Shown here in pieces: positions 17,837-64,000 of a stretch of 64,000 nucleotides of DNA. This DNA comes from an uncultured Methanosarcinales archaeon. GTDB taxonomy: Archaea > Nanobdellota > Nanobdellia > Woesearchaeales > GW2011-AR9. Numbering within the stretch: the first letter of the stretch is position 1; each line of letters opens with the position of its first letter. The DNA lies in NCBI GenBank assembly GCA_964552945.1, contig CAZKIP010000005.1, positions 2,643-66,642 on the forward strand. Reading direction: 5' to 3'. Under the pieces are notes generated by a model. That model was given only the letters and a program-made list of their open reading frames with translations. It ran no database searches and was not told the origin of the DNA. The position numbers and the translations under genes are program-made.

Positions 17837-18424
17837 CTACTCAAAATATTTCAACAATCTTTCTGGATGGTATTTAGTGAGAAGGAAATCTGCAAAAATT
17901 GATAACAATAACCAATAAAAAATGTGAAGAAGGTCTGTATGTCCTAAAATGTTAAGATAATTGTTTGAATAATCCCATAAAGTTAAATTAAAAACGGAAA
18001 CAGAAAGAAACCCTCCTAAAAACTCTAATGAACCTAAACAAAAAGTATAAAATGCTAATTTCTTCCACATGCTTGAAACGTTTAGATGAATTAAATAAAT
18101 AATTACCATTCCAAAACCATAGATGGGAAGAAAAGGAATAAAAATATTAAAGATTTCACTTAAAAAACTCACATAAATCAATCCTTGACCTGTAAAAGAT
18201 CTGTAAGCACTATCAATTATAAAACCAAACAGGCCGCCAACAAAAAACAATAAAACACCAGTCTCTAAAATCTTTTTCATAAGACTAGAATTTTTCATTG
18301 GTTTATTAATTCTTCCACTTGATACTACAACCCATACTTGGATTTTCCGATAAAGAAATAGAACCAGAAGATAAAAATCCCTCAATAGCAGAGTACAACT
18401 CATGTTTCCCTTTCTTCTCTCCAT
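17837..18424 (-). CDS. Membrane protein (likely true start at internal Met ~18298)
   Basis: 4-5 hydrophobic helices; N-terminal 42 aa of the ORF overlap the upstream redoxin gene. Confidence 0.4.
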   Translation of the reverse strand: MERRKGNMSCTLLLRDFYLLVLFLYRKIQVWVVVSSGRINKPMKNSSLMKKILETGVLLFFVGGLFGFIIDSAYRSFTGQGLIYVSFLSEIFNIFIPFLPIYGFGMVIIYLIHLNVSSMWKKLAFYTFCLGSLEFLGGFLSVSVFNLTLWDYSNNYLNILGHTDLLHIFYWLLLSIFADFLLTKYHPERLLKYFE

Positions 18425-23429: not shown

Positions 23430-23609
23430 TGGCCCCGCCGAGACTTTCAAAACCTGAAAGGCTTGTTTTGCTCAAGCTTTTCTTAAAAGGTTATTTGAAC
23501 TCGGGACCTCACGATTTCAGTCATAACGATGTTATGATATCAGTCGTGCGCTCTTTCCTGCTTCCAAGTCTTAATAAGCCTCGAAAGTACCAGGCTAAGC
23601 CACGGGGCC
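23430..23609 (-). tRNA. tRNA-Ile (GAU) with three introns (D-loop ~34 nt, canonical 37/38 ~22 nt, T-loop/T-stem ~50 nt)
   Basis: Minus-strand read: acceptor GGCCCCG/CGGGGCC + A, D-stem GCTT/GAGC around loop AGCCTGGTA, anticodon stem CACGA/TCGTG with loop CTGATA|A and a 7-bp intron hairpin TCATAAC/GTTATGA, variable AGGTC, T-arm CCGAG-TTCAAAT-[insert]-CTCGG; 180 nt = 74 + 106. Confidence 0.65.
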
Positions 23610-25025: not shown

Positions 25026-25081
25026 TTTTTTTCTTATTTTTTATTTTAAATTTTTTAAAATCAAAAAAAGTGGCGTGAAAA

Positions 25082-27439
25082 ATGAAACATAAAATTGTTA
25101 AACTAGTTTTAGGTGTGGTAATCCTAATTTTAATTCTACAAACCGTTTTTGCCGCCACAAGAGTTTTTCAAGTACAAGAAACAGATTTTGTGAAAATAAA
25201 TGCTAAAGCGATAGACCCAGATTTGGATAAAGTAACTTACCAATTTGGAGAACCACTGGATCAAGATGGCGAATGGCAAACAACCTATGGAGATGCGGGA
25301 GAGTATGAAATTGATGTTAAGGCATCTGATGGAAAAAATGAAACTATCAAAAAAATAAAATTGGTAGTTACTAAAAGAAATCAAGCACCCTATGTTAAAG
25401 AAAAAAAGTTAGTGGCAAAAGAATCTAAAACAGTTAATTTAAAAGAAGCTATCGTTGACCCAGATGGAGATGTTTTAACTTACACATTTAAAGCTCCTTT
25501 TAACGAAAAAGGCGTTTGGCAAACTAATTTTAACGATGCGGGAGAACACACCGCTTCATTTACAGTAACTGATGGAGAATTCTTAATAGAAGCAAAGGTA
25601 AACGTCGTAATTGAGGATAAAAATCAACCCCCTTTCATTGACAACATTTTCTCTGAAGAGGATAAATTAGAGTTTAATGAAGGTGAAGAGTTAAATTTTT
25701 CTGTAAAAGTAAGAGACATAGATAGTGAAAATATTGATTATATTTGGAAATTGGATGGGGCAAAAATTAGTGAAGATAATGAAGGAGAACATGAATTTGA
25801 TTACGATTCTTCCGGTGAACACCAATTGGAACTTCAGGTTAGTGATGGAGAAAACAATATAGAAAGAAGTTGGAAAATTGAAATTGAAAACACCAATAGA
25901 AAACCTGCATTAAGTCTAGAACCAATAACCGTTAATGAAGGAGAATTAGTAAAGTTAATTCTTCCCGGTAAAGATCAAGATGGAGATTCCCTTACCTATG
26001 AACTAGAAAAACCTTTAGATAGTAATGGAAAATGGAAAACTGATTTTGAAGACGCGGGAAAATATTTTGCCGAAGTTGTTGCAGATGATGGGGAATATAA
26101 ATCTCAAACAGAAGTTGAAATAAATGTAGTTGATGTTGACAGAATCCCTACTTTAAACGTACCAACCAGGCTAGAAGTGAAAGAAGGAGAGAAACTTTCT
26201 TGGACAATTGATACTACAGACCCAGATAATGATGTCCTCGACATTAAAGTAATCAATGCACCAGAAGGTTCAATTCTTAATAAGAAAGTCTTTTCATGGG
26301 AACCTGATTTCTCAGCGATAAAAAGAAAGGGTGGATTTGTGAGTAATGTTTTAAATTCGTTAAATTTAGAAAGGTTTTTTCTAAAAATGAAAGTTATCCC
26401 TCTAAAAATTAAAGTATGTGGAAAAAGTTTATGTAATAATAAAGAGTTAGAGTTGGTTGTCTACAATGTAAATCGTCCTCCAGTTATGCAAGGACAAAAA
26501 AACTATACAATTCAAGAAACTGAAGAATTGACAATTGTGCCTTCTGCAATAGACCCAGACGGAGATATTGTTAAGTATGCTTTCTCATCACCAGTTCAAA
26601 AAAGAAGTGGTAAATGGAAAACTAGTTTTGATGACGAAGGGATTTATGATATCTATGTATCTGCCACTGATGGGAGATTTACTGACACATTACCTTTTGT
26701 TGTGAATGTAAAGAAAAAGAATCGTGGGCCTTCATTAAATGTTGATAAAGATGAATTTGTTATTTTAGAAGGTAAAAAGCTATCGTTCAAAGTTACCGCT
26801 TCAGATCCTGATGAAGACAATTTGAATATTGAATTAGAAAATCTTCCTCCTGGAGCTTCGTTTAAAGATGAAACATTTATTTGGACTCCTTCAAAAGAAT
26901 TTGTTAAGAATAAAAGTTCTGGAACCATAAACAAAATATTACAAAAATCTTCATATCTTATCAAAAAATTTAGTGATGACGAAAAAACGCATTGGTTAAA
27001 ATTTTCTGCAGACGATGGAGAAACAAAAACAATTCATCCAGTAAAAGTTATTGTTAAAAACAAAAATCAGGCACCTAAGATCATTGATTATCTTCCTATG
27101 AATAAAACACTTTTTACAGAAGTTAACAAACCTTTAATTTTCCACGTTACAGCAACCGATTCTGATAACGATAAGTTAAGTTACGAATGGAGTTTTGATT
27201 TTGGACAGCAAAAAGTTAGAGGGACTGATACTATTGAAAGAACTTTCCTTACTCCTGGAGAAAAAAAGGTCAAAGTCAAAGTAACTGACGGACTAGAAAC
27301 AGTTGAAAAAGAATGGATGGTTTCTGTACAAGAAGTTCTCTATCCTACTCCAGTTATAATTTCAAATCCTACTCAAAATGTACCTCAAGCACTATCTCCT
27401 CCTGAAACTGAAACTTTTAGGGTAATTGTTATTGAATAG
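25082..27439 (+). CDS. Cell-surface protein with ~8 cadherin/Ig-like repeat domains (paralog of upstream gene)
   Basis: Signal peptide; repeated DPD.D.LTY.F..P....G.W.T.F.DAG.Y motif units along 785 aa. Confidence 0.6.
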   Translation: MKHKIVKLVLGVVILILILQTVFAATRVFQVQETDFVKINAKAIDPDLDKVTYQFGEPLDQDGEWQTTYGDAGEYEIDVKASDGKNETIKKIKLVVTKRNQAPYVKEKKLVAKESKTVNLKEAIVDPDGDVLTYTFKAPFNEKGVWQTNFNDAGEHTASFTVTDGEFLIEAKVNVVIEDKNQPPFIDNIFSEEDKLEFNEGEELNFSVKVRDIDSENIDYIWKLDGAKISEDNEGEHEFDYDSSGEHQLELQVSDGENNIERSWKIEIENTNRKPALSLEPITVNEGELVKLILPGKDQDGDSLTYELEKPLDSNGKWKTDFEDAGKYFAEVVADDGEYKSQTEVEINVVDVDRIPTLNVPTRLEVKEGEKLSWTIDTTDPDNDVLDIKVINAPEGSILNKKVFSWEPDFSAIKRKGGFVSNVLNSLNLERFFLKMKVIPLKIKVCGKSLCNNKELELVVYNVNRPPVMQGQKNYTIQETEELTIVPSAIDPDGDIVKYAFSSPVQKRSGKWKTSFDDEGIYDIYVSATDGRFTDTLPFVVNVKKKNRGPSLNVDKDEFVILEGKKLSFKVTASDPDEDNLNIELENLPPGASFKDETFIWTPSKEFVKNKSSGTINKILQKSSYLIKKFSDDEKTHWLKFSADDGETKTIHPVKVIVKNKNQAPKIIDYLPMNKTLFTEVNKPLIFHVTATDSDNDKLSYEWSFDFGQQKVRGTDTIERTFLTPGEKKVKVKVTDGLETVEKEWMVSVQEVLYPTPVIISNPTQNVPQALSPPETETFRVIVIE

Positions 27440-27515: not shown

Positions 27516-29060
27516 ATGGATCAAACTATCAAATTAGCTTTAGATACCATTAAAATAAATAAACAAGCTATTATTTTTAACCCTAGCAGAGCTAGTGCAG
27601 AGAAAACTGCGGAAGACATTTCTAAACTAACAGATTTATTTCATCCAGAACTTGAGAAAGGAGTTCTGCATTCTATATCAAGCCCTACTAAACAATGTAG
27701 GAGGTTATCTAATTGTGTAAAAAAAGGAATCGCTTTCCATCATTCTGGGTTAACAAGTAAACAAAAAGAAATTGTTGAAGAATCTTTCAAAGAAGGTAAA
27801 ATAAAAATTATATCTGCTACACCTACTTTAGCAGCAGGACTTAGCATGCCTGCTTTCAGAGTAATTATCAAATCTCTTAAAAGATACTCTGGCAGCTGGG
27901 GAATGAATTGGATTCCTGTTTTAGAATATTTACAAATGGCAGGGAGAGCAGGAAGGCCGGAGTATGAAGCTTTTGGAGAATCCATTGTTATAGCAAAAAC
28001 TGAACCTGAGAGAGATGAGATTGTTGAAAGATACATCAAAGGTGTGCCAGAAGACATTTATTCCAAGTTAGCAGCAGAACCGATCTTAAGAACCTACCTT
28101 CTTTCATTAATTTCTTCTGGATTAATCCGTGATGAAGAAAGCATGAACAATTTTTTCAGTAAAACCTTTTGGGCTCACCAGTTTAAAGACATGAATAAGT
28201 TGCAACAGATTATGGAAAAGATGATTCTTTTACTTGAAGAATGGGGATTTATTTCAATCCAAGGAAAAGAGGGAGTTAATTCAGACTTTGTAAGCGCTCA
28301 AGATCTTGACAATAAAAGTAAAAGTAACAAAACAATGAGGCCAACCCTTATTGGTAAAAGAATCTCTGAACTTTATCTTGACCCATTAACTGCAAATCAT
28401 CTTATCAATTGTTTGAAAAATTATGATGACAAAAAAGAACATTTTTCTCTATTACAAATGATTTCCCACACTTTAGAGATGAGACCTCTACTAAGAATCA
28501 AGAAAAAAGAAGAAGAAATTATTAATGAAGAGTTGACAAAAAATTATCATTTGCTTCTTGAAAAAGAACCTTCATCTTTTGATATTGAATATGATGAATT
28601 TTTCAATTCCATAAAAACCTCGCTCTTTTTTGGAGATTGGGTTGATGAAAAAAATGAAGATTACCTTTTAGAGAAATATAATGTTCGTCCAGGAGAAATT
28701 AGAAGCAAGATTGAATCTGCCAACTGGCTAATTTATGCAGCTAAAGAGTTAGCAAAAATAAATGGAGACAATTTGGTAGCACATGAATTAAGAAAACTTC
28801 GAGAGATGGTAAAAAATGGAGTTCGTGAAGAACTTCTTCCACTTCTAAAATTGAAAGGGATTGGGAGAGTTAGGGCTAGAAAACTTTTCTCTCATGGCAT
28901 GAAAGATTTAGGTCATTTGAGAAGAACAGATTTAACGTCTCTTACTCAAATTGTTGGTAAGGCCACTGCTGAAAGTGTTAAGATTCAATTGGGTGAAGAA
29001 ATAAAAGTAATTCCAAAAGGGACTAGGAAAGGTCAATTGAGCATGGAGAAATTTAAATAA
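27516..29060 (+). CDS. Hel308/Ski2-like helicase, C-terminal portion only (RecA2, winged-helix, ratchet and HhH domains; RecA1 missing)
   Basis: Begins directly with the helicase C domain (IAFHHSGL...ISATPTLAAGLSMPAFRVII...QMAGRAGRP) and ends with the GIGRVRARKL HhH domain; no Walker A/DEAH domain; own TATA (AAATATATAAAAG) ~25 nt upstream. Confidence 0.65.
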   Translation: MDQTIKLALDTIKINKQAIIFNPSRASAEKTAEDISKLTDLFHPELEKGVLHSISSPTKQCRRLSNCVKKGIAFHHSGLTSKQKEIVEESFKEGKIKIISATPTLAAGLSMPAFRVIIKSLKRYSGSWGMNWIPVLEYLQMAGRAGRPEYEAFGESIVIAKTEPERDEIVERYIKGVPEDIYSKLAAEPILRTYLLSLISSGLIRDEESMNNFFSKTFWAHQFKDMNKLQQIMEKMILLLEEWGFISIQGKEGVNSDFVSAQDLDNKSKSNKTMRPTLIGKRISELYLDPLTANHLINCLKNYDDKKEHFSLLQMISHTLEMRPLLRIKKKEEEIINEELTKNYHLLLEKEPSSFDIEYDEFFNSIKTSLFFGDWVDEKNEDYLLEKYNVRPGEIRSKIESANWLIYAAKELAKINGDNLVAHELRKLREMVKNGVREELLPLLKLKGIGRVRARKLFSHGMKDLGHLRRTDLTSLTQIVGKATAESVKIQLGEEIKVIPKGTRKGQLSMEKFK

Positions 29061-36234: not shown

Positions 36235-36507
36235 ATGGAGCAAAAAGAGGAGAAACTATCACGAGCGATTAGTGCCTATTCTAGAAGACAAATTCTTAGA
36301 CTTCTTGCAGATAAAGAATTAACCGTAAAAGAAATTGCTGCTAAGACCAATCTTTCTGTTTCCCTTGCCTCAAGACATCTAAAATTACTATATGATCTTG
36401 GTTTTCTAACTGTAAGAAAAGAATATCCTTTCAAATATTATTCTCTTAAGATAAAAGAAATGAAAAGCTTGCTTGAAATGTACGATAAGGTAATTAAAAA
36501 AATATGA
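36235..36507 (+). CDS. ArsR-family winged-helix transcriptional regulator
   Basis: RRQILRLLADKELTVKEIAAKTNLSVSLASRHLKLL HTH typical of ArsR/SmtB; stop overlaps the next start (ATGA). Confidence 0.6.
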   Translation: MEQKEEKLSRAISAYSRRQILRLLADKELTVKEIAAKTNLSVSLASRHLKLLYDLGFLTVRKEYPFKYYSLKIKEMKSLLEMYDKVIKKI

Positions 36508-39500
36508 AAAGAAAAATAAGAAGTAAAAAAGCGGAGAAATGCCTGCACAAGGAAAGAGTTATCCTAGTAATGTTACTCTCAGCAGTACTGCTATTCTTCT
36601 TAGCAAGTAGTCCAAACTTTGGAACTAAAACTATTGTCGATTCGGTAGATTATTTTAATCAAGTTAGCTTATTTGATGGGAGTTCTATAACAGGAGCAGC
36701 CGTTATTGGCATATCTAGTACCGACAATGACGATGATTTAGGAACTTTTGTTGATGATTTTGCTGATGGGATAAGTAATACTTCAAGATGGTTCAATCAT
36801 ACAACTAGAATGACCATACATCATGAAAATGAATTGATGAGATTTAATGCCTCATTAGCTTCAACTGAAGGAAACGCATCAATTATAACTATAGAGAATT
36901 TGTCTATGCATTCATTTAATATAACTGCAAATGTAACCTTACAAAATACATCAGATAGTCTTTCTACTGATGCATTGGCAACAATAGAATTAAGTTTATT
37001 TAACCAAACTAACCTTTCTCAAACCACAACATGTTCAGTAAATTTAGAAGAATCCTCAGGTGGAGCATATTATTTATATTTCGGAAACTCCACCACAAGT
37101 AATCCACCTCCAACAATTATTAATGCAGAAATGGCAAATATTGGAGATAATTTGACAGGACTCCTGAGAATGGAGTATATTAATGACACTGAAACAATCA
37201 ATTGTACTTTTACCACTGGATTTGATTCTTACTCTGTCAAAGGTGTTACTAAAGACATAGGACAAGATTTTGGAGCAGGCATTTTATCACAATTAACTAC
37301 TCAAGGAGGTGCCGCTTCAGGTGATGTGAATGCCACAATTGCGTCATTTAATTATAGTTTGGCTCCAGTTGCAAGTGCAAATAACGAACCTACCTCTACC
37401 ATCCTTCTAAACACAACAGATTTAACAGCAAACGATACCAATCAAAACTTAACAGCTTATTCAGAGACAAGTGATTTAGACAATGATGATGTATTTGTTG
37501 TTTACAATTGGTTATTAAATGGTTCATCTGTGATGGTCCTAAACATGCCTTTCTTGCCAAATGACAATAATGAAAGTGCTTCTACCCACAACTATGCTCT
37601 TGGTGATAATGGAAATAATACAGGAGGGGCATCATGGAACTCCACAGGAGGTTTTGATTTCAATGGCAGCTATGAATTTGATAGTATCGATGATTATCTT
37701 TCTTTAGAAAATTCCGGCCAATATGAACCTACCATGAATTTTAGCATAGAAGCATGGGTTTATGTAAAAGGCAGTGGAAACAACGGAGGACAAAATGGAA
37801 TCGTTAATAAAGACGGAGGGTTCAACGATGGTTTTAATTTTGCGATTGGTGATTCTTCTGCCCCAACAGTAAATTTTGGAACTGGAGATTCTGGAGCCAG
37901 TGACATTGAAACAATCACAGAATTAAATCTCAACGAATGGACCCATGTTGTTGCTTCATATAATGGAAGTAATACTTCAATTTACATCAATGGCGCGTTA
38001 GACTTTGTTGGTACAAGAACTGGTGCTTTAGCCTATAGTACAGGCGATTTAGAAATAGGAAGAAATAGGGATACACCACCCGGACAGGAAGGATATTTCA
38101 ATGGTTCCATTGACAACGTTAGAATTTGGAATATAACTTTAACCCCTGAACAAATTTCTGCTCTTTACAAAAATAGAACAGACCTAATCGTTTCACAAGA
38201 ATTAAGTGTAGGAGATAATTGGACAGTAGATGTAACTCCAAACGATGGAGTTCTTGATGGAGCAATTAATAGATCTAACGATTTGTTGGTGTTAGATGTT
38301 ACTGCACCAGCAGCCAACAATGACCCTACCTCTACCATCCTTCTAAACACAACAGATTTAACTAAAAATGATACCAATCAAAACTTAACAGCTTATGTAG
38401 ACACAAGTGATTTAGATGCTGATACAGTAAACGTTGTTTACAACTGGTTATTAAATGGTTCATCTGTGATGGTCCTAAATATGCCTTTCCTACCAAATGA
38501 TGGAAATGAAACTGCTTCTACCCACAACTATGCTCTTGGAGATAATGGAAATGTTACTGGTGCTACATGGAATTCTACAGGTGGTTTTGATTTCAATGGC
38601 AGTTATGAATTTGATAGTGTTGATGATTACATTTCTATAAGAGATAGAAGTGAGTTTGAATTAACCTCAAATATAACAATAGAAGCGTGGTTCTATTTGA
38701 AAGGCAATGGGAGCACAGGGATTAGTGGTCTTTTAAATAAAGATGGTGGGTTTGGCAATGGATTTGATATTGAATTAGGAACTGATGATCTTTTGAATGT
38801 AGCTTTCAACACCGGAGATTTTGGATCAACAACTTTAGAAACTGCTGCAAACGCAATTTCTCTTAACAGATGGACCCATTTGGTAATAATGTATAATGGA
38901 AGCAATACTTCTATTTATATTGATGGCGCTTTAAATGTAGTTGGTACGAAAACTGGCGCATTAACTTACAGCACTGGAGATTTAGAGATAGGTAGGGCAA
39001 TTAACTCCAGTGGACAAGAGGGTTATTTCAATGGTTCCATAGATAACGTTAGAATTTGGAATAGAACTTTAACCCCTGAACAAATTTCTGCACTCTACAA
39101 AAACAGGACAGATTTAATAGTTTCTCAAGAATTGAATGTAGGAGATAATTGGACAGTAGATGTAACTCCAAACGATGGAGTTCTTGATGGAGCAATTAAT
39201 AGATCTAACGATTTGTTGGTGTTAGACATAGTTGCAGCTGCTCCTAGTTGTGGAACTCTTACTTCTAATACTACTTTAACAGAGGACATTAATTCTACTG
39301 AAACATGTTTCACTATTGGTGCTCATGGAATTACTTTAGATTGTGATAATTATTTAATCAACTATTCCACAGAAGGTAGCGGAAATGGAATAGATAATAC
39401 AGGATATCACAACGTAACAATTAAAGATTGTAGGATTGAACAATACGGAAATACAGGAGAAGCAATTCTATGGGATGACGCTAGAAGTGGTAAATTAATT

Positions 39501-42425
39501 AACAACACCATTATAACTTACACTGCAACATCGCCAGCAATTTTTATACCTCCAAATTCCAATAATACTTATATCACAAAAAACAACCTAACTACAAAAG
39601 ATAACTCTTATGCCCTAGATGTTGTTGGAAGAGACAACAACATTACAAATAATACCTTTTTATCAACTAATTCAGCTGGGATAAGAGTTGTTTATGCTCA
39701 AGGGGTGAAGAATTTATTCAAAAACAATTTCATCCAAGGATATCCTTTTGGTTCCATTGGAATTGATGTAAACAACCTCAATAATACTTTTTTAAACAAT
39801 ACAATAATCATGAATAGTTCTTCATCATGGGGAGTTCGTATTACAGATGGTAACTACACTCATCTTGAAAACAATACAATAAATGTAACAGGAGCAACAA
39901 GCTATGGGATATATCTTTCTGATAGTTCTGAAAGAAACTCTTTAATTAACAATCTTCTAGAAACTAATTCCTCAGATTCATTTTCAATTTTCGATGAAAC
40001 TGATGACAATAAAATAAATTATATGAGTTACATTAACGCATCAAGCAAAATTGAATGGGTGGATAATGGATCAAGAAGTTTCTTAAGAAATTTAACTTTT
40101 AATGGGACCATTGGTCCAAATACAAACATTTATTTAGGAAATGGAACCGTAGCTGTCGATACATCGGCATTTGACAATGGAAAAATTAATTCTACTGTCA
40201 ACATTACTTTTTATGGATTAGATTTAGAATTTGCAGATGCAGTTATCAAAATCCATAGTTTTAGCACAGATGGTGTAACCATAGATAGTTCAGGTTCAGA
40301 TTGTGTAGGAGATTCTTGTGAGATTATTAGTTACACTGGAGGGACTTTAAGATTCAATAGTACATCATTGGGAAGTTTATTTGCAAACAACTCAGAGGAT
40401 TTAACTCCACCAAATGTAACCATCCTAACTCCAATAAACACAAGTAATTTTTCAAAAACATCTAGTAATCAAACATTTAACGTAAGTATTAATGAGGCTA
40501 ATATTTATGGGGTATTATTCATTTTTGATAATGGTTCTGGAGTAGATTTCAACATTACAGCAAATAACAATTCGGGATATTGGGCTGCACCATACAACGT
40601 TTCCACTTTGGCAGAAGGAACACAAACAGTTAGAGTGTCTGCAAATGATACGGCAGGAAACATAAATAGTACACAACAGGTTACAATTACAACAGATTAT
40701 ACAGCCCCAAATGTAACTATCATCTCACCAACTAACAGAAGCAATTACTCCTTTACTTCAAGCAATCAAACGTTCAACACATCAGTATTTGATGCAAACA
40801 TCAAAACAGTCTGGTTCTCATTTGATAATGGAACGGGAACAGATTTTAACATTACAGCAAATAATAACTCTGGGTATTGGGCTGCACCATACAATGTATC
40901 AACACTAGCAGAAGGAACACAAACAATAACGATTATAGCAAACGATTCAGCAGGAAATGTAAACACAACACAAAGCATTACAATAACAACTGATTACACT
41001 GTACCTGTAGTTAACATCACATTCCCAACTAACGGAACCAATTTCAGCATTGGATCTTATAATCAAACTTTCAATGTAAGTATCCAAGAAAGAGACATAG
41101 GAACTGTCTTATTTAATTTTGATAATTCATCCGGAACAGGATTCAACCTTACTCCAACAAATCAATCAGGATATTGGGTAGCTAGTTACAATGTTTCAAA
41201 GCTAGCAAATGGAACACACCTATTAACAATTTTAGTTAACGACACTGTAAACAATAAAAATAATACGCAAACAATAAATTTCACTTTTGATAATAGAACA
41301 ATGCCTGTCGCTCCTGCCCCTGCAGGTGCAGGAAATACAGGAAGTAGTGGAGGAGGAGGTTCAAGTTCCTCCTCTGATTCAGGAGGGGGAGGGTCCCTTC
41401 CAATAAAAGAACCCGCTCCTAAATCGGTTGCCCCTGAAGATTTTGAAAAATCAGAAAAAGATGTTGTAGAAGAAAAAGTAGAAAAAGAAGATTCAAGTGA
41501 ACAAGTAGATTCAAAAGGAGTAGCCGCAACTACTATAAAAGCCCTTAAATCTGCCAAGTCTACTTTTAGCGCAACTGGGAAAGCATTTTTCTCTGGAGAA
41601 TTTTTATTAGATATGTCTGGGGTTTGGATTCTATTAATCTCCCTAATGTTACTTTCTGTATTGTTATTATTTGTTACCTTTAGACACAAGAAGCGCTTTA
41701 TCCCTTATTATGTTTCAGATTATCCCTCTCCAGAATTACAAGTTGAAAGAACCAGCCATTTACGCCAATTAAGATCACAAGTAAGAAATGCGGGTGCTGG
41801 AGTTAAGAGAGAAATTAGTTCTTTATTAGCTAAAGGAAGAATTCATCAAACTTCTTTGAAATGGCTACAGAATTGGGTCGAAACGATGCAAGGCAAAGGA
41901 GATTCGGAAGCTAAAATAAAGAGCTTATTACAACATAATCCTAATGTGACCCCTCAGATGATTAAAGTGGTTTTAGATAGAATAAAAGCTAAAAAGTTAT
42001 TGCAGAAGAAATATTCTCTATCCTTAAAAGAATTAGAGAAAATTGAAAAAGTGGTACTTAAGTTAGTTAAAAAAGGAAAAACCATCTCTGAGATAAAATC
42101 TATCTTCTCTGAAAATGGGTGGGATTCTTCAATCCTAGGTCCTTTTATTGAAGCATATTCCAAACTAGTACGTAAAAGAAAATTTGTTGCTTATGGTGCA
42201 CTTCAAATTTCACAAAAATTAGCAAGAAAAATGGTCAAAAAAACTCACAATTTATCTTCCATCGAGATAAAACAATTAGAATCTTTCATTGACGATTGTT
42301 ATAATAGAAACATTCCTATGGGGGAAGTAGTTGATGGTTTGGTTGAAAGTGGATGGACTTACAAGGAGATTGATTCATTGGTTAGAATACGTTATCGGAT
42401 GGGCCTTTATAATGTTGTCCTATGA
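36504..42425 (+). CDS. Giant (1973 aa) cell-surface protein: signal/TM, two LamG-like domains, right-handed beta-helix region, three Ig-like repeats, G/S/P linker, TM anchor and ~270-aa cytoplasmic tail; extremely rich in N-x-S/T sequons
   Basis: LamG signatures (W.HV...YNG.N.SIYING...GYFNGSIDNVRIWN) twice; NNTI/NNLT beta-helix repeats; three ~95-aa repeats (P.NVTI..P.N.SN.S....NQTFN ... SGYWAAPYNVSTLAEGTQT); C-terminal TM VWILLISLMLLSVLLLFVTF. Confidence 0.7.
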   Translation: MKRKIRSKKAEKCLHKERVILVMLLSAVLLFFLASSPNFGTKTIVDSVDYFNQVSLFDGSSITGAAVIGISSTDNDDDLGTFVDDFADGISNTSRWFNHTTRMTIHHENELMRFNASLASTEGNASIITIENLSMHSFNITANVTLQNTSDSLSTDALATIELSLFNQTNLSQTTTCSVNLEESSGGAYYLYFGNSTTSNPPPTIINAEMANIGDNLTGLLRMEYINDTETINCTFTTGFDSYSVKGVTKDIGQDFGAGILSQLTTQGGAASGDVNATIASFNYSLAPVASANNEPTSTILLNTTDLTANDTNQNLTAYSETSDLDNDDVFVVYNWLLNGSSVMVLNMPFLPNDNNESASTHNYALGDNGNNTGGASWNSTGGFDFNGSYEFDSIDDYLSLENSGQYEPTMNFSIEAWVYVKGSGNNGGQNGIVNKDGGFNDGFNFAIGDSSAPTVNFGTGDSGASDIETITELNLNEWTHVVASYNGSNTSIYINGALDFVGTRTGALAYSTGDLEIGRNRDTPPGQEGYFNGSIDNVRIWNITLTPEQISALYKNRTDLIVSQELSVGDNWTVDVTPNDGVLDGAINRSNDLLVLDVTAPAANNDPTSTILLNTTDLTKNDTNQNLTAYVDTSDLDADTVNVVYNWLLNGSSVMVLNMPFLPNDGNETASTHNYALGDNGNVTGATWNSTGGFDFNGSYEFDSVDDYISIRDRSEFELTSNITIEAWFYLKGNGSTGISGLLNKDGGFGNGFDIELGTDDLLNVAFNTGDFGSTTLETAANAISLNRWTHLVIMYNGSNTSIYIDGALNVVGTKTGALTYSTGDLEIGRAINSSGQEGYFNGSIDNVRIWNRTLTPEQISALYKNRTDLIVSQELNVGDNWTVDVTPNDGVLDGAINRSNDLLVLDIVAAAPSCGTLTSNTTLTEDINSTETCFTIGAHGITLDCDNYLINYSTEGSGNGIDNTGYHNVTIKDCRIEQYGNTGEAILWDDARSGKLINNTIITYTATSPAIFIPPNSNNTYITKNNLTTKDNSYALDVVGRDNNITNNTFLSTNSAGIRVVYAQGVKNLFKNNFIQGYPFGSIGIDVNNLNNTFLNNTIIMNSSSSWGVRITDGNYTHLENNTINVTGATSYGIYLSDSSERNSLINNLLETNSSDSFSIFDETDDNKINYMSYINASSKIEWVDNGSRSFLRNLTFNGTIGPNTNIYLGNGTVAVDTSAFDNGKINSTVNITFYGLDLEFADAVIKIHSFSTDGVTIDSSGSDCVGDSCEIISYTGGTLRFNSTSLGSLFANNSEDLTPPNVTILTPINTSNFSKTSSNQTFNVSINEANIYGVLFIFDNGSGVDFNITANNNSGYWAAPYNVSTLAEGTQTVRVSANDTAGNINSTQQVTITTDYTAPNVTIISPTNRSNYSFTSSNQTFNTSVFDANIKTVWFSFDNGTGTDFNITANNNSGYWAAPYNVSTLAEGTQTITIIANDSAGNVNTTQSITITTDYTVPVVNITFPTNGTNFSIGSYNQTFNVSIQERDIGTVLFNFDNSSGTGFNLTPTNQSGYWVASYNVSKLANGTHLLTILVNDTVNNKNNTQTINFTFDNRTMPVAPAPAGAGNTGSSGGGGSSSSSDSGGGGSLPIKEPAPKSVAPEDFEKSEKDVVEEKVEKEDSSEQVDSKGVAATTIKALKSAKSTFSATGKAFFSGEFLLDMSGVWILLISLMLLSVLLLFVTFRHKKRFIPYYVSDYPSPELQVERTSHLRQLRSQVRNAGAGVKREISSLLAKGRIHQTSLKWLQNWVETMQGKGDSEAKIKSLLQHNPNVTPQMIKVVLDRIKAKKLLQKKYSLSLKELEKIEKVVLKLVKKGKTISEIKSIFSENGWDSSILGPFIEAYSKLVRKRKFVAYGALQISQKLARKMVKKTHNLSSIEIKQLESFIDDCYNRNIPMGEVVDGLVESGWTYKEIDSLVRIRYRMGLYNVVL
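37385..39236 (+). repeat. Near-identical ~930-bp tandem duplication inside the giant surface-protein gene (copy 1 ~37385-38315, copy 2 ~38323-39236)
   Basis: Long stretches identical between copies (e.g. 38190-38300 vs 39128-39236); also shown by identical antisense ORF peptides at 38165-38377 and 39125-39313. Confidence 0.75.
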
Positions 42426-42570: not shown

Positions 42571-45033
42571 ATGACCCATTCAGAAATACAAAAAAGCTCA
42601 GATCATGACAAAATTGTTCCTCGTGTTATTGAGGAGGAAATGAAGACAGCTTACATTAATTATGCCATGTCAGTTATTGTAGGTAGGGCCCTTCCAGATG
42701 TCAGAGACGGCTTAAAACCAGTGCATAGGAGGATCCTATATGCTATGTTTGAAATTGGTTTAACTCACAATAAGTCTTTTAAAAAATGTGCTAGAATTGT
42801 AGGTCAAGTTTTAGGTGCATATCATCCTCATGGTGATGCTTCAGTTTACGATGCTTTGGTGAGAATGGCACAAGATTTCTCGCTCCGTTATCCATTAATT
42901 AGGGGACAGGGTAATTTTGGTTCCATTGATGGTGATTCTGCAGCTGCATATCGTTATACAGAAGCTAAGTTAAACAAGTTTGCTGAGGAACTTCTCAAAG
43001 ATATTGATAAAAAAACAGTTATTTTTAAAGACAATTTTGACGGTTCTCTACAAGAACCTTCGGTTCTTCCATCTAAGATTCCTAACCTTTTGGTAAATGG
43101 TTCTTCTGGTATCGCCGTAGGAATGGCTACCAACATCCCCCCTCACAATTTAACTGAAGTTTGTGAAGGAGTTATTTCATTAATTGATAATCCTGAAATT
43201 ACTGTTGAAGAATTAATTAAAATTATTCCTGGTCCCGATTTTCCTACTGGGGGGACTATTAATTGTGGGAGTGCTCTTTATCATGCTTATGCTCACGGGA
43301 AAGGTAAAGTAACAATAAAAGCGGTATCCGATGTTACGGATAGTAAAATAATTATTAGCGAGATTCCTTATCAAGTTAACAAGGAAGAGATGATTAAACA
43401 AATTGCTAATTTAGTTAGAGACAAAGTTATTACAGGAATTCGTAATATTAACGATGAATCTGATAAAGATGGGATTAGGGTTGTAATTGATCTTAAACAA
43501 GGTACAGATGGTCAAGTCATTTTAAATCAACTTTACAAACATAGTCGTTTAAAAATTTCTTTTGGGATGAATATGCTGGCTTTAGTAGATTCTCGGCCTC
43601 GAGTTCTTGGATTGAAAGATATTTTGCATTATCACATTCTCCATAGAAAAGAAGTAATTACCAATAAAACAAAATATGAGTTGGAACAAGCTCAGAAGAG
43701 GGTCCACATTTTAGATGGATTACTTGTTGCGCTTAACAATATTGATGAAATTATTCCAGGTATAAAGAGAAGTAGGACAGTAGATGAAGCAGAACTATTT
43801 CTAATGGAAGGATACTCTCTTTCTAAGATTCAAGCCAAAGCCGTTTTAGAGATGCGATTACAGAAATTGGCTTCTTTGGAGCAAGATAAAATTAGGGATG
43901 AACACAAAAGTTTATTGGAAAAAATTGAAGAATTTTTAGCAATTTTATCTTCTGAAGAAAAAGTTCTAAACATTATCAAGCAAGAAATGGAAGAAATGAA
44001 AAACAATTATGGAGATGAAAGGCGTTCACAAATTGTTATTGGGGATGATGACGGCGGATTTGACATTGAAGAATTGATTGAAGAAGGAACCGCTGTTGTA
44101 ACTCTTACCAATGCAGGATATGCAAAAAGACTGTCTATTGATACCTATAAAGTTCAACATAGAGGGGGAAGGGGGGTAAAAGCTGCTGGAACAAAAGATG
44201 AAGATTTTGTAGAAAGATTATATGTTACTTCAACTCACGATTATCTTCTTTGTTTTACCGATAAAGGACAAGTTTACTGGCTTAAAGTTTATTTAATACC
44301 TGAAGGAAGTCGTCAATCTAAAGGGAAACATATCGCAAATTTACTTGAACTTAAAGAAGGAGAAAAAATAAATGCCATAATCCCCGTCCGTGATTTTAAA
44401 GAAGGCTATCTATTCATGGCAACTAAGAAAGGAACGGTTAAGAAAACTGAACTAACTTGTTTCTCAAAACCTCGAAAAGGAGGAATTAGGGCCATTGCTC
44501 TAGATGATGACGACTCTTTAATTGGTGTTAAACATACTTCTGGAGAGAAAGAGATTATATTAGCTACCAAAGAAGGTCAAGCAAATCGTTTTAATGAACA
44601 AAATGTCCGTCCAATGGGTAGAACAGCAAGAGGAGTTCGAGGAATTCGTCTTAAGGGAGAAGAAGATTATGTTATTGGTATGATTATTGCAGAAGAAGGT
44701 AAAAATATTCTTACTTTGACAGAGAAAGGTTATGGTAAAAGAACTCCAATTAGTGATTATCGGTTATGTAATAGAGGAGGGAAAGGAGTTACAAACATTA
44801 AGGTTACAGAAAAGAATGGTCCAGTTCAATCTATCAAAGTAACAAGTGGCGATGAAGAATTAATGCTTGTATCTAAGCAAGGTATTGGAATAAGGATAAG
44901 ATGTGATTCTATCTCAACTATTGGAAGGGCTACTCAAGGAGTTAGAGTGATGAGATTGGGCGAAGGAGATCAACTTGCTGCCGCAGCAAAAATTGTTATT
45001 GAAGATGAAAATGTGGAAGAAACTGAAGAATGA
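42571..45033 (+). CDS. gyrA: DNA gyrase subunit A
   Basis: N-terminal [28 protein letters not shown], active-site Tyr region, GyrA-box [12 protein letters not shown] and C-terminal beta-pinwheel repeats; 820 aa. Confidence 0.85.
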
Positions 45034-55332: not shown

Positions 55333-55377
55333 ATTGTTAGAATAGTTGCTTGTTTTAAATAGTTTTTTAGAAAAATG

Positions 55378-55488
55378 AGGGCCTGGAGGGAATTTCACTA
55401 GACGTTCGTTCCATCACTTGCGTCATAGACTTGAACCCCCGATCTGTCCCTCTGCAGGGGACCGCTTTAGCCGCTTAGCCACAGACCC
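55378..55488 (-). tRNA. tRNA-Cys (GCA) with ~38-nt intron between T-loop and T-stem 3' strand
   Basis: Acceptor GGGTCTG/CAGGCCC + U73, anticodon stem GTCCC/GGGAC with loop CTGCAGA, T-stem GGGGG...CCCTC with TTCAAGT loop then insert; TATA (ACTATATAAAT) upstream and oligo-T downstream. Confidence 0.7.
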
Positions 55489-55536
55489 ATAAGAATCTCT
55501 TAATGTTGATTATTTATATAGTTATTGGAAGAAATA

Positions 55537-55671
55537 TGGGCCTGATGGGAAAGTCGAAGCATCGCTCCTTTCTGCGAAACTTATTCGAACCCACGGTATC
55601 CAGCTCTCATCAATTGGTTTTTACAACCAACATAGAAGGCTGGCGCCCTATCCAGACTAGGCTACAGGCCC
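55537..55671 (-). tRNA. tRNA-Arg (UCU) with two introns (canonical 37/38 ~27 nt with TTGGTT/AACCAA hairpin; T-loop/T-stem ~33 nt)
   Basis: Acceptor GGGCCTG/CAGGCCC, D-arm GCCT/GGGC, anticodon stem CCAGC/GCTGG with loop CTTCTA|A, T-arm GTGGG-TTCGAAT-[insert]-CCCAT. Confidence 0.65.
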
Positions 55672-55717
55672 ATAAGAAGCTAAATCAACAAGCATCTTTT
55701 AAATATTTCGTTAAATT

Positions 55718-56299
55718 CTATCCTTCAATCGTAATTTTCTGGACAACTACATCTTCAAGAGGCTTGTCTTGGTGGTCTTTTTGAACCTTACCAATCTTAT
55801 CAACGATATTCATTCCTTCAATAACTTTCCCAAAAACAGGGTGTTTGTCATCTAAAAAATTGTTATTCACTGTATTGATAAAAAACTGACTACCTCCTGT
55901 GTTAGGTCCGGCATTAGCCATAGAAATAGTTCCTCTATTGTTTCTATTAGAATCAGTAAACTCATCTTTAATTTTATATCCTGGATCTCCTGTTCCCCAC
56001 ATTGCTTTCTTAGAAACTTCCTTTGAAAGAGGGTCTCCTCCCTGAATCATAAATCCGTCAATTACTCTATGAAATCTTGTTCCATCGTAAAATCCTTTAT
56101 TAGCTAAATCAATGAAATTTTTTGTAGTAATTGGCATTGTATCTGTATGTAGTTGAAGTGTAAAATAGCCCATATTTGTTTCTATTTTTGCAGTTGTCAT
56201 AGTTCCCTCCTTACTAATTGCATTACCTGTACATGAAACTAAAGTAAAAACTATAGTTACAGACAATATCAAAAAGAATAATTTTGTAACATATTTCAT
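55718..56299 (-). CDS. Cyclophilin-type peptidyl-prolyl cis-trans isomerase, lipoprotein
   Basis: FHRVIDGFMIQGGDP and downstream motifs of cyclophilins; N-terminal signal with LVSC lipobox. Confidence 0.8.
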   Translation of the reverse strand: MKYVTKLFFLILSVTIVFTLVSCTGNAISKEGTMTTAKIETNMGYFTLQLHTDTMPITTKNFIDLANKGFYDGTRFHRVIDGFMIQGGDPLSKEVSKKAMWGTGDPGYKIKDEFTDSNRNNRGTISMANAGPNTGGSQFFINTVNNNFLDDKHPVFGKVIEGMNIVDKIGKVQKDHQDKPLEDVVVQKITIEG

Positions 56300-56421: not shown

Positions 56422-56799
56422 ATGGCTAATACAAAACAAATCGAAAACAATGTTATAGAATCATTTCAATTGGCTAAAAAGGACATTTCAATCCTATTTG
56501 ACCAAGTTGCTAAACTAAGGAAAGAACTTTCTCAGTTAAACGCAGCTCGTTATGAACTTTCACTAGAAGTAAAAAAACTTTCTTCAAAAAGAAAAGTTTC
56601 TAGAAAAAAAGTTTCAACTAAAACTAAATCTAAACCTTCAGTGAGCAAAAAATATGTTGCTTCAAAGAAAGGTAAAAAAGTACACAATCCAAACTGTTTC
56701 TTTGCATCAAATATTGATAAAGAAAATAGGGTTGTTTTTAACACCAAAACAAAAGCACTTAATGAAGGATTTAGATTGTGTAGCTGTCTAGCTTACTAA
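56422..56799 (+). CDS. Coiled-coil protein with Lys-rich linker and C-terminal Ada-type zinc-binding domain
   Basis: C-terminal HNPNCFFAS...ENRVVFNTKTKALNEGFRLCSC resembles the Ada metal-binding domain (...PSC...V.F.....A...GFRPCKRC); AGGAGG SD 8 nt upstream. Confidence 0.4.
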   Translation: MANTKQIENNVIESFQLAKKDISILFDQVAKLRKELSQLNAARYELSLEVKKLSSKRKVSRKKVSTKTKSKPSVSKKYVASKKGKKVHNPNCFFASNIDKENRVVFNTKTKALNEGFRLCSCLAY

Positions 56800-57890
56800 G
56801 GCAACCAAGTTTTTTTATTCTTAATTTTTTCTGGAAGATAGGTATCAACAACATAATTCAATCCCCATTTAGCCAATGCTTGCTGTTCTGCCCTTACTTT
56901 CATCTTAGCCATTTGTTGTAAAGCTTTTTGCCACGGCTTATGGTGTTTAATAAAGGGATCGTTCTTAATCAAATCTTTAATTTTCTTAATATCTACATCT
57001 TTTAAAGGGTGAGAGGGTAATTTGTAGTTTACAATATCTTGTGGAGTAATTCCTATGAATTGTGCTTGAGGAACACAGAAATATTTGTTAATGTGGGCAG
57101 CATTACCCGAACCAACTTTCAAAGTTCTGTAAATGGAACCAAATCCGTAAGGGTCTCCGTCTGTAAAAACGTATACCGGCAACTTTTTTTCATCTGCCAA
57201 CTTTCTAATAAACCTTCGACATGCTCTTGTAGGAACTCCTCCCATAGCGATTAGGATACAATTTGCTTTTCTCCAATATTTATGTTTGTTTAGACGTTCA
57301 AACATACCGCTTGTTTCAATAGCTAGAACAAATTTAGCTTTTGTTTTGAATTTTAAATGTTCTACCGAACTTGGAACTGAATAAGCACCAGAACCGAACT
57401 TTGTACAATCAATCTCTAAACTCTTTCCAGTTTCTTGATCTTTATCAACAACTACCAATTCTCCAGCAACCGCCCCTCCCTTTTCTTCAGGGATGAAACC
57501 TATCTGTTCTCTGTTAACGGCCATCATTGCTTCGATATCATCCATCACGGAATCTGATTCTGGTTGTTCCTTAAAGCGCGCATCTCCCCAGTTTTTACTT
57601 ACATAATAAGCTTCTCTTTTGGTTGCAATATCTTCAGTTTCAATAAGCTCTTTAGAAAGACCCATCATTCTCAATGTTTGAGCAAACGTTTTAATTGTGG
57701 ATGCTGTCAGAGTCCTTGTTTTAACTTTATGTAATAATTTGAAATATCCTTCTTTGTCATCATAAGAAACATTACTTAGGGATCTAATTGGCATTTCTAA
57801 CTGTGGAGATTTAATTAGTTTGATTTTACCATAGACTTCTTTTGCTACTTCCTTAATCTTTTCTACAACTTGGTTATCTTTTTTAGCCAT
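56796..57890 (-). CDS. top6A: DNA topoisomerase VI subunit A (Spo11-like)
   Basis: Toprim region LIAMGGVPTRACRRFIRKL...VYVFTDGDPYGF and winged-helix catalytic region; 364 aa. Confidence 0.85.
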   Translation of the reverse strand: MAKKDNQVVEKIKEVAKEVYGKIKLIKSPQLEMPIRSLSNVSYDDKEGYFKLLHKVKTRTLTASTIKTFAQTLRMMGLSKELIETEDIATKREAYYVSKNWGDARFKEQPESDSVMDDIEAMMAVNREQIGFIPEEKGGAVAGELVVVDKDQETGKSLEIDCTKFGSGAYSVPSSVEHLKFKTKAKFVLAIETSGMFERLNKHKYWRKANCILIAMGGVPTRACRRFIRKLADEKKLPVYVFTDGDPYGFGSIYRTLKVGSGNAAHINKYFCVPQAQFIGITPQDIVNYKLPSHPLKDVDIKKIKDLIKNDPFIKHHKPWQKALQQMAKMKVRAEQQALAKWGLNYVVDTYLPEKIKNKKTWLP

Positions 57891-57898
57891 TTTAATTA

Positions 57899-59698
57899 TT
57901 AATCAAATAATGTTTTTTGCCTTTCTCCTTTACTTTCTTCTTCATTCTCTTCTTCAGCATTTTTAGTTTCTTCTTTTTCTACTTCCTTCTCTACTTTTTC
58001 ATCATTTTTGACTTCTTTGTTTTCATTTTCCTTAGGTTCTTCTTTTCCAATTTTTGCTAATTCCGGATCATAATCTGGATTATTTACACCAATTTCTTCC
58101 AGCTCTCCTCTTGTGTGTTCTAAAATTTCACCCAGATTGTCTTCAATTATTTTTTTATTAATTTCATCAAATCCAATTATTTCTTTCAATGCATCTGCAA
58201 CATGGGGGATGTATTTTTCAATGTAACTTCTTTTCTTAGCTTCATCTTTTATCCTTTTCTTTTTATTAACAAAACTTGCAAGTTTACGCCCACACTCTTG
58301 CAATGATAATTTTATTTCTTTAATTATTCCATTGTAATGGGCCAAAGCTTCTTTAGATTCTGAAGTAAAAGGGACCCACACAGAAGTCATATGGATGACG
58401 ATGGTACAAGGACCTACAGGAATAGAACTTCTACTTTGTTGTAAACCATAATTTCTCCAGGAGGTATTTTGAACAGAATTGGTTATTGCACAAGCCCCTT
58501 GTTGGTATAGTAGAGGAACTCTATTTGCAAAACGCATAATTCTAACAGTGGAATCTGCAGATTGTTCTCCACCATAAGCCATTGCAGTTTCAATAACAAA
58601 AGGATTCCCTCTGTAAACACTAGCCGGTCTTGTGGCTGAACAATAGAACTCTGCATTTATTTCTTTCCTTAAACCTTTTTCTAACAATTCTGCGCCAATG
58701 GGGGAAATACAATCTGTAGGCGGAGAAATTATTTTTGTTTTTTGAATGCCTTTATACAAATTCTCTGCCATATCTCTCCCAATTTTTTTAGGTTTTGTTT
58801 TTGGCAATAAAGAAGAATTAGCACAAATTTCTTTAGCTGTACCTGCCCCTACTCTTACAAACTCGCTAGTTAGAAATTGTTGAAGAGTTTTTGCTGGAGT
58901 TGTTTCCAACATTTTGATAAGCCTTCCCAGTTCTATTCCATAAGGGTGGGGTTTAATCTCTTTAGGTTCTGGAGGTAAATCTTCGCTTGCTCTTGGAAAA
59001 ATAAATTGTTTTGCTTCAGGATTCGTATAAATTACTGTACAATGAGGATTTACAATAGCTGTTTGTTTAAGATATTCATCAACGGATTGTCTTCCTTTGT
59101 TGTAACTTCCTTCCATGTCAATCTCAATTTTGGTTCCGTGATCTTTTTCTTCCCATTCAATTTCTTCTTCTCCTAACAATTGAGGGTTGTTAGTTTGAGT
59201 GTTAATTTTTATCTTAACTAAGTTGGCCATTTCAGATTTACCAGTTTTAGAAACAATTGTGGCTGGTTTACCTGTAGTGAGTTGTCCATATAAAACGGCT
59301 GCCGAGATACCTATCCCTTGTTGTCCTCTGGTTGCAGATAGTTTATGGAATTTACTCCCATAAAGAAGCTTAGCAAAAATTTTTGGAATTTGTTTTTTAA
59401 TTATCCCTGGCCCGTTATCTTCTATGATTACCCTAAACCTACTATCACTTAGTTGAATAAGCTCCACATTTATCTCTGGCAAAATTCGTGCTTCTTCACA
59501 TGCATCTAGTGCATTGTCAACTGCTTCTTTCACAGCTGTCATCAAAGCTCTTCTTGGATTGTCAAAGCCTAATAAATGTCTGTTCTTTTCAAAGAATTCG
59601 GCAATTGATATCTCTCGATGTTTCTTTGCTAGTTCCTGAGCTGTCTTTTTAACCATTTGAAAAATGTAAAATTTAGTCTTTTTATAAGGTTTACTCAA
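57899..59698 (-). CDS. top6B: DNA topoisomerase VI subunit B (GHKL ATPase)
   Basis: Bergerat-fold motifs ELVDNALDA-like ([12 protein letters not shown]), [19 protein letters not shown]; transducer domain; Glu/Lys-rich tail. Confidence 0.85.
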
Positions 59699-63233: not shown

Positions 63234-64000
63234 ATGGCAAAAATAAGCCCAGTAGCGGCAAAATATATTGTTCAATCATCTATAATTATTGAAGGAATCG
63301 TTGATCGGCCTGATGTAATAGGCGCGATTTTTGGACAAACTGAAGGTTTACTTGGTAACGAGCTTGAATTAAGGGAGTTACAAAGAAGCGGAAGAATTGG
63401 TAGAATTGAAGTTAATTTATCTACAAATAGGGGTAAGACTTCTGGTGAGATAATCATTCCTAGTTCTTTAGATAAAACAGAGACAGTTATTGTAGCTGCT
63501 TCTCTAGAAATTATTCAAAGAATTGGTCCTTGTAACGCTAAAATTAAGGTTGACAAAATTGAAGACGTTCGTACAAGTAAAAGACAATTTGTTGTTCAAA
63601 GAGCTAAGGAATTACTTAAATTTCTTACTGAAACAACCCTTCCTGATTCACAAGAATTGGCTGATGAAGTTTCTCAGTCAGTTAGAATGATGGAAGTTGT
63701 TGAGTTTGGCAGAGAAAGACTTGCTGCAGGTCCTGCAATTGAAGATAGTGATGAAATAATCATTGTTGAAGGAAGAGCAGATGTACTAAATCTTTTGAAG
63801 CATGGATTTAAGAACGTAATTGCTTTAAATGGTACTTCTTGTCCGGAATCAATCAAAGAGTTGACTAAGAGAAAGACTTCAGTTTTATTTGTTGATGGAG
63901 ATAGGGGAGGAAACCTAATTATTCGTGAACTTTTAAGTGTGGCTGAGATTGATTTTGTTAGTAAAGCTCCTGATGGAAAGGAAGTTGAAGAAATTACTAA
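63234..64000 (+). CDS. dnaG: DnaG-type primase (archaeal, Toprim), 3'-truncated by the window end
   Basis: N-terminal PDVIGAIFGQTEGLLG and Toprim IIVEGRADVLNLLKHGFKNVIALNG...VLFVDGDRGG; open to the window end. Confidence 0.75.
   Translation, partial: MAKISPVAAKYIVQSSIIIEGIVDRPDVIGAIFGQTEGLLGNELELRELQRSGRIGRIEVNLSTNRGKTSGEIIIPSSLDKTETVIVAASLEIIQRIGPCNAKIKVDKIEDVRTSKRQFVVQRAKELLKFLTETTLPDSQELADEVSQSVRMMEVVEFGRERLAAGPAIEDSDEIIIVEGRADVLNLLKHGFKNVIALNGTSCPESIKELTKRKTSVLFVDGDRGGNLIIRELLSVAEIDFVSKAPDGKEVEEIT

Follow-up and report, generated by a model that had tools for sequence, protein, structure and literature searches.

Known systems of multiple archaeal tRNA introns

Reports of archaeal tRNA genes with as many as three introns in non-canonical positions go back to 2003–2008. 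The canonical geometry of the archaeal splicing motif is said to have been set out by Marck and Grosjean in 2003, and the multiple-intron tRNA genes of Thermoproteales were reportedly documented by Sugahara in 2008 and Fujishima in 2010. The motif, bulge-helix-bulge (BHB), consists of an outer helix, a 3-nt bulge, a 4-bp central helix, another 3-nt bulge, and an inner helix, and cleavage occurs on the 3′ side of the second base of the bulge (PMC3239211). The record is held by Pyrobaculum calidifontis, with 71 introns in 46 tRNA genes; the mean number of introns per gene is 0.84 in Thermoproteales and 0.21 in archaea overall (PMC8450103), and disruption of up to 87% of tRNA genes has been reported (PMC3239211). 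The enzyme of ARMAN-2 cleaves the 59/60 intron of pre-tRNA-Cys(GCA) in vitro and has a broad specificity (PMC3239211). In DPANN archaea, including one Woesearchaeota genome, splicing endonucleases (EndAs) with an L3 loop occur together with markedly more disrupted tRNA genes (PMC5829648).

The subject of this study is a tandem of tRNA-Arg(UCU) and tRNA-Cys(GCA) genes within a 64-kb stretch of archaeal DNA, which is called the window hereafter. The tRNA-Arg gene has two introns (37/38 and 59/60) and the tRNA-Cys gene has one (59/60), and the tRNA genes of the window match a class already described, that of multiple and non-canonical archaeal tRNA introns (Thermoproteales; ARMAN-2). The feature is known in kind, has been noted only in passing for this lineage, and reveals no new mechanism. 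The two genes are very probably functional, separately transcribed archaeal tRNA genes with protein-spliced BHB introns.

Thermoproteales resemble the window in having up to three BHB introns per gene at the D-loop, 29/30, 37/38, 53/54, and 59/60; in both, most genes are interrupted, introns turn over fast between relatives, and standard tRNA finders fail (PMC8450103, PMC4033280). They differ in being hyperthermophilic Crenarchaeota, whose EndA is an (αβ)2 enzyme with an L1 (Crenarchaea-specific) loop. The pre-tRNA-Cys of ARMAN-2 shares with the tRNA-Cys of the window the isoacceptor, the T-loop site, and a DPANN host (PMC3239211), and in ARMAN-2 there are also tRNAs with introns at 53/54 and 59/60, as found in the window for Ala and Ile. 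However, its Cys intron is 13 nt long with a relaxed hBH motif, whereas that of the window is 38 nt long with a strict hBHBh′ motif, and its enzyme is of the ε2 type, whereas for other DPANN archaea the literature suggests an α4 enzyme with an L3 loop (PMC5829648). The two Cys introns have no sequence similarity, and the site is intronless in related Woesearchaeota tRNA-Cys genes; the insertions in ARMAN-2 and in the window are therefore probably independent.

Structure of the tandem genes

The tandem is situated between a cyclophilin gene (56299–55718) and an NFACT-family gene (ATG at 55332). Its features are as follows.

55698–55703, minus strand: TATA-like box TTTAAA of tRNA-Arg, −32 to −27 from the mature 5′ end
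55537–55671, minus strand: tRNA-Arg(UCU) gene; pre-tRNA 135 nt, mature tRNA 75 nt, A73, CCA not encoded
55671–55633, 55605–55584, and 55550–55537, minus strand: exons of tRNA-Arg(UCU)
55632–55606, minus strand: Arg intron 1, 27 nt, canonical position 37/38, relaxed BHB
55583–55551, minus strand: Arg intron 2, 33 nt, position 59/60, in the T-loop
55527–55536, minus strand: weak putative terminator, T-rich, 3′ of tRNA-Arg (TATTTCTT; TATTTCTTCC)
55513–55520, minus strand: TATA-like box TATATAAA of tRNA-Cys, −32 to −25, within the 48-nt Arg-Cys spacer
55378–55488, minus strand: tRNA-Cys(GCA) gene; pre-tRNA 111 nt, mature tRNA 73 nt, CCA not encoded
55488–55430 and 55391–55378, minus strand: exons of tRNA-Cys(GCA)
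55429–55392, minus strand: Cys intron, 38 nt, position 59/60, in the T-loop, strict hBHBh′
55369–55377, minus strand: putative terminator, clear T-rich tract, 3′ of tRNA-Cys (CATTTTT; CATTTTTCT)
55503–55784, plus strand: spurious 93-aa ORF, antisense to tRNA-Arg and to the 3′ end of the cyclophilin gene, no Pfam match
55333–55398, minus strand: spurious GTG-start extension of the NFACT ORF, covering the 3′ exon of tRNA-Cys; real ATG at 55332

The minus-strand tandem of tRNA-Cys(GCA) and tRNA-Arg(UCU) had been proposed by an earlier, sequence-only reading of this DNA, and it was confirmed both by reading the sequence and by ARAGORN, which, when the introns are removed in silico, accepts the products, which are 75 and 73 nt long, as tRNA-Arg(tct) and tRNA-Cys(gca), respectively. 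The tRNA-Arg has the acceptor stem GGGCCUG/CAGGCCC followed by A73, the D-arm GCCU-AGUCUGGAUA-GGGC with A20, the anticodon stem CCAGC/GCUGG, and the T-stem GUGGG/CCCAU; its first insert lies directly 3′ of A37. The tRNA-Cys has the anticodon loop CUGCAGA (CTGCAGA in the DNA) and the discriminator U73 at 55378, both as that reading had them. The number and the approximate sizes (38 and 33 nt) of the T-arm inserts also stood, but their position had to be shifted: they lie inside the T-loop, at 59/60, and not after it.

The unspliced genes escape the usual detection. ARAGORN calls neither of them in its default or intron mode, and neither reaches the Rfam gathering threshold: at a permissive threshold the Rfam tRNA model gave only partial matches, of 21 bits for Arg (55586–55671) and 27 bits for Cys (55426–55488), against a cut-off of 29. 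When only the T-loop intron is taken out of the Arg gene, ARAGORN detects the 27-nt anticodon-loop intron unaided. A run of ARAGORN with a lowered threshold and long introns returned 117 calls, mostly spurious, and was dropped.

Splicing motifs at the intron junctions

Each junction was scored by the pairs formed in the central helix (of 4), the outer helix (of 3), and the inner helix (of 3). Scanning with this score alone is unspecific, many off-target positions in the pre-tRNAs reaching at least 8 of 10, and it was used only jointly with the requirement that splicing yields a valid tRNA. The weight of the scores lies in their location: the high ones coincide precisely with the boundaries at which splicing gives valid tRNAs. 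The splice sites given above are those predicted by BHB geometry.

The Cys intron has the most regular motif, with a score of 4/3/3, which is the sole 10/10 match within the tRNA-Cys gene. Its outer helix is provided by the T-stem. Between the bulges AG|U and AU|U lies the central helix UUCA/UGAA, and CUA/UAG together with GACG/CGUC makes up the inner helix. At the boundaries that restore a 7-nt T-loop, all seven pairs not dictated by the tRNA itself (four central, three inner) are formed; the expectation by chance is about 0.375^7, roughly 1e-3. In Arg intron 2 (score 3/3/3), the central helix UUCG/CGAC contains one U·C mismatch, the bulges are AA|U and UU|U, and an inner helix is present. 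For both T-loop introns, the BHB-constrained fold is within 1 kcal/mol of the minimum free energy (MFE): −14.2 versus −15.1 kcal/mol for Cys and −14.3 versus −15.3 kcal/mol for Arg. The MFE register of the latter, with a UCGA/UCGA central helix, was considered as the splice-defining fold and rejected, because the T-loop would then be 9 nt long.

The pairing at 59/60 is supported by compensatory change. Among eleven 59/60 introns, namely those of the Arg, Cys, and Ile genes of the window and eight in relatives, a T-loop UUCG is always opposite CGAA or CGAC, and a T-loop UUCA is always opposite UGAA, so that the pair 57:(−6) alternates between G-C and A-U.

Arg intron 1 is less regular (score 3/3/2). 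Its central pairs are C-G, U·U, U-A, and C-G, the 3′ bulge is AG|A, and the inner hairpin has 7 bp with one extra U; the sequence-only reading had counted a 6-bp hairpin, which is right for the Watson–Crick pairs and omits one G-U pair. The local fold has a z-score of −5.35. Since the strict geometry is 4.4 kcal/mol worse than the MFE, the motif is classed as a relaxed BHB; what had been called a canonical intron is thus canonical in position but relaxed in structure. The canonical 37/38 hBHBh′ introns of Haloferax tRNA-Trp and Methanocaldococcus tRNA-Met share with it the position, the 3-nt 3′ bulge, and a central helix between the anticodon loop and the intron. Unlike them, Arg intron 1 has the U·U mismatch, and an internal loop takes the place of a clean 3-nt bulge around its 5′ splice site. 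An α4 or α′2 enzyme with strict requirements would therefore be expected to cut it poorly. In orthologs, introns at 37/38 have GAAG, GAGG, or GATG as the central strand.

That the inserts are introns, as had been proposed, is supported at three levels: BHB or relaxed BHB motifs are found at every junction, the 57:(−6) pair covaries, and in the orthologs the exons recur while the introns differ or are missing. Removal of these short inserts, with the splice sites placed in bulges, restores cloverleafs with 7-nt loops.

A course of processing can be proposed for the two genes. Each would be transcribed from its own TATA-box promoter, and the exon–intron junctions of the precursor would fold into BHB motifs. 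At 59/60, the T-stem would act as the outer helix, and T-loop positions 54–57 would pair with intron positions −6 to −3 to give the 4-bp central helix. Both splice sites would then lie in the flanking 3-nt bulges, where EndA would cut; an RtcB-type ligase would join the exons, often circularizing the intron, and a normal 7-nt T-loop or anticodon loop would be restored, with CCA added after splicing. Since 59/60, where two of the introns lie, is a non-canonical site, and only one of the three motifs is perfect, the host endonuclease must tolerate relaxed substrates and have a broad specificity, which has been reported for DPANN enzymes.

Flanking signals

TATA-like boxes precede all the tRNA genes of the window: such a box is located at −33 to −25 in 6 of 6 genes, the hexamer beginning between −33 and −30, against 2.4% of random positions, a contrast that is optimistic since the motif and the interval were defined post hoc. 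The claim that each gene of the tandem has its own TATA box was borne out, the TATA-like hexamers beginning at −32 for Arg and at −32/−30 for Cys. T-rich tracts were found downstream of each tRNA gene of the window. For the tandem, where oligo-T tracts had been noted, T-rich tails do follow both genes; the one after Cys is clear and the one after Arg is weak, and both are listed above as putative terminators. A scan for sigma-70 promoters and intrinsic terminators, which does not apply to archaea, found nothing. The overlapping ORFs had been judged spurious, rightly so: the 93-aa ORF has no Pfam match, and the NFACT_N Pfam match of the downstream gene starts near the ATG at 55332.

Other tRNA genes and intron density in the window

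The window contains four further tRNA genes, which were located through GC-rich islands (the sequence has 33% GC) and manual parsing.

13141–13280, plus strand: tRNA-Phe(GAA), introns at 13162–13198 (D-loop, 20/21) and 13216–13244 (37/38)
16956–17059, plus strand: tRNA-Ala(GGC, G3:U70), intron at 17010–17039 (53/54); Rfam tRNA match of 36 bits
17600–17711, minus strand: tRNA-Pro(GGG), one D-loop intron, about 17690–17654
23430–23609, minus strand: tRNA-Ile(GAU), introns at 23588–23555 (D-loop), 23537–23516 (37/38), and 23493–23444 (59/60)

ARAGORN accepts all four after in-silico splicing. Before splicing, tRNA-Phe is miscalled as Asn by ARAGORN -i, and only a truncated version of tRNA-Pro is found. 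None of the six genes of the window is recovered in full by ordinary tRNA finders, which overlook or shorten them, so automated annotations of DPANN genomes of this kind would report "missing" tRNAs, with spurious ORFs placed over them. Such "missing" tRNAs distort completeness estimates and inferences of host dependence.

Overall, the six tRNA genes contain 10 introns (three in Ile, two each in Phe and Arg, and one each in Ala, Pro, and Cys), in accordance with the claim that all six genes carry introns, nine or more altogether. The density of 1.67 introns per gene, calculated from six genes only, compares with the published record of 71/46 = 1.54 (PMC8450103). The window is therefore at the published upper limit, a statement that is fair numerically for a sample of six genes. 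The "extreme density" that had been claimed thus holds as a number, but for so few genes, and the phenomenon had already been described. A Woesearchaeota-like lineage is hereby added to the few clades with multiple non-canonical tRNA introns, at a density matching the known maximum.

A GC-rich island was also seen upstream of tRNA-Pro, at 17790–17826 (within 17745–17850). An 11-bp inverted repeat (TAGAAACCCTC...GAGGGTTTCTA) borders it on both sides, and there are two occurrences of the word TTTTGAGTAG. The island has no Rfam match, and its fold z-scores (−0.3 and −1.25) are unremarkable; it may represent a small RNA or a hairpin with a regulatory role.

Host and introns in related genomes

Archaeal markers in the window include Topo VI A and B, Hef, RIO kinase, and NOG1. 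An exact-protein lookup of Topo VI A gave no match. Its relatives, with 72–88% identity, are found on 80 genome contigs, of which the informatively labelled ones belong to Woesearchaeota or Nanoarchaeota MAGs; the complete genome GW2011_AR15 is among them. From the Topo VI subunits and these relatives, the host is taken to be a Woesearchaeota-like DPANN archaeon. A metagenome scan with NFACT yielded 5 loci only, distant ones with 56–58% identity.

The relatives were compared by spliced alignment of the mature tRNA sequences to the loci of the Topo VI A relatives. For tRNA-Arg(UCU), 30 genes were found to carry 33 introns, 0–3 each, and 26 of them are interrupted; all 30 yield valid tRNAs after in-silico splicing. 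The introns occupy five sites (20/21, 25/26, 29/30, 37/38, and 59/60), with 3–4 of the 4 central-helix pairs formed at four of them and 1–2 at 25/26. The 59/60 intron is present in 7 of these orthologs. For tRNA-Cys(GCA), 11 genes carry 6 introns, and 6 of the 11 are intronless; a twelfth gene, on a metagenome contig directly upstream of NFACT, is also intronless. The mean number of introns per gene in the relatives is accordingly 1.1 for Arg and about 0.5 for Cys. The 59/60 intron was found in none of the 12 related tRNA-Cys genes.

In a rough neighbor-joining tree of Topo VI A, built from this single protein and without support values, the window adjoins the locus designated L001. In L001, the tRNA-Arg gene is interrupted three times, at 20/21, 37/38, and 59/60, and the tRNA-Cys gene has no intron. 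Both Arg sites of the window thus appear to be common to the nearest relative, with intron sequences that seem unrelated. By the same comparison, the Cys 59/60 intron is likely to be private to the window lineage, which would mean either a recent gain or multiple losses elsewhere. For dating the gains, for which a comparison with relatives had been suggested, the metagenome scan with NFACT yielded no relative of the same species that would narrow the age of the Cys intron further.

The patchy intron patterns over the tree suggest frequent turnover. In Thermoproteales, similar introns recur in different tRNAs, which is evidence of transposition; a search for intron-to-intron similarity across the window and the 85 fetched loci was negative, so there is no sign here of transposition of that type. 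These roughly 30 related genomes, with tRNA-Arg interrupted at five alternative sites and a tRNA-Cys intron confined to the window lineage, provide comparative material on the gain and loss of BHB introns and on how it tracks endonuclease specificity.

A wider proposition, which we put forward only tentatively and think rather unlikely, is that essentially every tRNA gene of this genome is interrupted, with more than 1.5 introns per gene, equalling or exceeding the record, in a DPANN archaeon that is mesophilic and has an endonuclease other than the crenarchaeal (αβ)2 enzyme, and with very recent gains such as the Cys 59/60 intron. If this were true, the lineage would lend itself naturally to observing the gain of BHB introns as it happens.

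Several further observations were made on the introns of the relatives. One is that the tRNA-Arg(UCU) genes of the closest relatives, L001 (8396–8524) and L015 (9169–9312), have a 20/21 D-loop intron with a perfect GUCU/AGAC central helix and the bulges GG|A and AA|A. Another is that the three introns in the single tRNA-Arg gene of L001 equal the known maximum per tRNA. The last is that seven tRNA-Arg(UCU) loci (L010, L012, L027, L043, L044, L060, and L078) carry an anticodon-stem intron at about 29/30 with a GGCG/CGCC central helix; these introns are similar in sequence (agaaca...gttccgccag) and never occur together with a 37/38 intron, and their carriers are scattered over the Topo VI A tree.

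Alternative explanations of the inserts

The inserts might mark decaying tRNA pseudogenes that were disrupted by random insertions, with functional intronless copies elsewhere in the genome. The failure of standard predictors on both genes and the imperfection of two of the three BHB motifs would fit this explanation, but the exons are intact and form perfect cloverleafs with the identity elements in place (U73 and GCA in Cys, A20 and UCU in Arg), and the inserts are located exactly where a BHB can form and where 7-nt loops return. Promoter-like boxes and terminator-like signals are kept, the same design occurs in all six tRNAs across 64 kb, and relatives have equivalent intron-containing genes at the syntenic site. 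Moreover, no second copy of tRNA-Arg(UCU) or tRNA-Cys(GCA) exists within the 64-kb window, and DPANN genomes are small, with tRNAs that are normally single-copy. We therefore regard decay as highly improbable.

Group I introns in tRNA genes usually lie in the anticodon loop. That the inserts are self-splicing elements of this kind, remnants of mobile elements, or expansions retained in the mature tRNA is improbable in the extreme. Group I introns are known in archaea, including in the rRNA genes of Woesearchaeota (PMC6125680), and a search by regular expressions and Pfam for the genes of the splicing enzymes EndA and RtcB was negative for the 64-kb window and for all 85 fetched loci. However, the inserts of 27, 33, and 38 nt have no ribozyme core and are far smaller than a catalytic core of more than about 200 nt (P3–P9), and an Rfam search of them gave no intron-family match, Intron_gpI included, even at E ≤ 10. 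Against a mobile origin, there are no repeats or similarities in the window or the 85 loci; against retention, the T-loop and the anticodon loop would be destroyed. The covariation of the pair 57:(−6), like the BHB geometry, indicates recognition by EndA in particular.

There is next to no chance that the region encodes protein, either in the 93-aa ORF of the plus strand or in the long NFACT ORF with a GTG start, and that its tRNA-like pieces are coincidental: ORFs of 93 and 383 aa do overlap it, but the former lacks a Pfam match and is antisense to the cyclophilin gene, the NFACT homology begins at an internal ATG, and the Arg and Cys exons, with about 60% GC in a genome of 33% GC, are conserved as tRNA in relatives.

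Other observations in the window

Other genes of the window also deserve mention. A gene for fructose-1,6-bisphosphatase (19959–20881, minus strand) is split into the ORFs 20881–20579 and 20483–19959 by a 1-nt frameshift at about 20585, just 5′ of the conserved DPLDGSSN motif. A BHB intron in its mRNA was considered and rejected, the break being a 1-nt frameshift; either the gene is a true pseudogene or the frameshift is an error of sequencing or assembly. An ORF for a Hel308-like archaeal helicase (27516–29060, plus strand) starts at Helicase_C without the DEAD/ResIII N-terminal domain; its N-terminal half may be missing, separately encoded, or lost through an upstream frameshift.

A bacterial-type DNA gyrase A subunit was found in addition to Topo VI A and B (42571–45033, plus strand; 56796–59656, minus strand; 63234–64000, plus strand), and in the last of these regions an ORF with a Toprim domain runs off the end of the window. 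Finally, very large putative surface proteins of 349, 785, and 1973 aa are encoded at 23976–27439 and 36504–42425 (plus strand), with PKD, cadherin-like, Big, and laminin-G/concanavalin-like domains. Such domains are typical of DPANN proteins of the cell surface or of host interaction.
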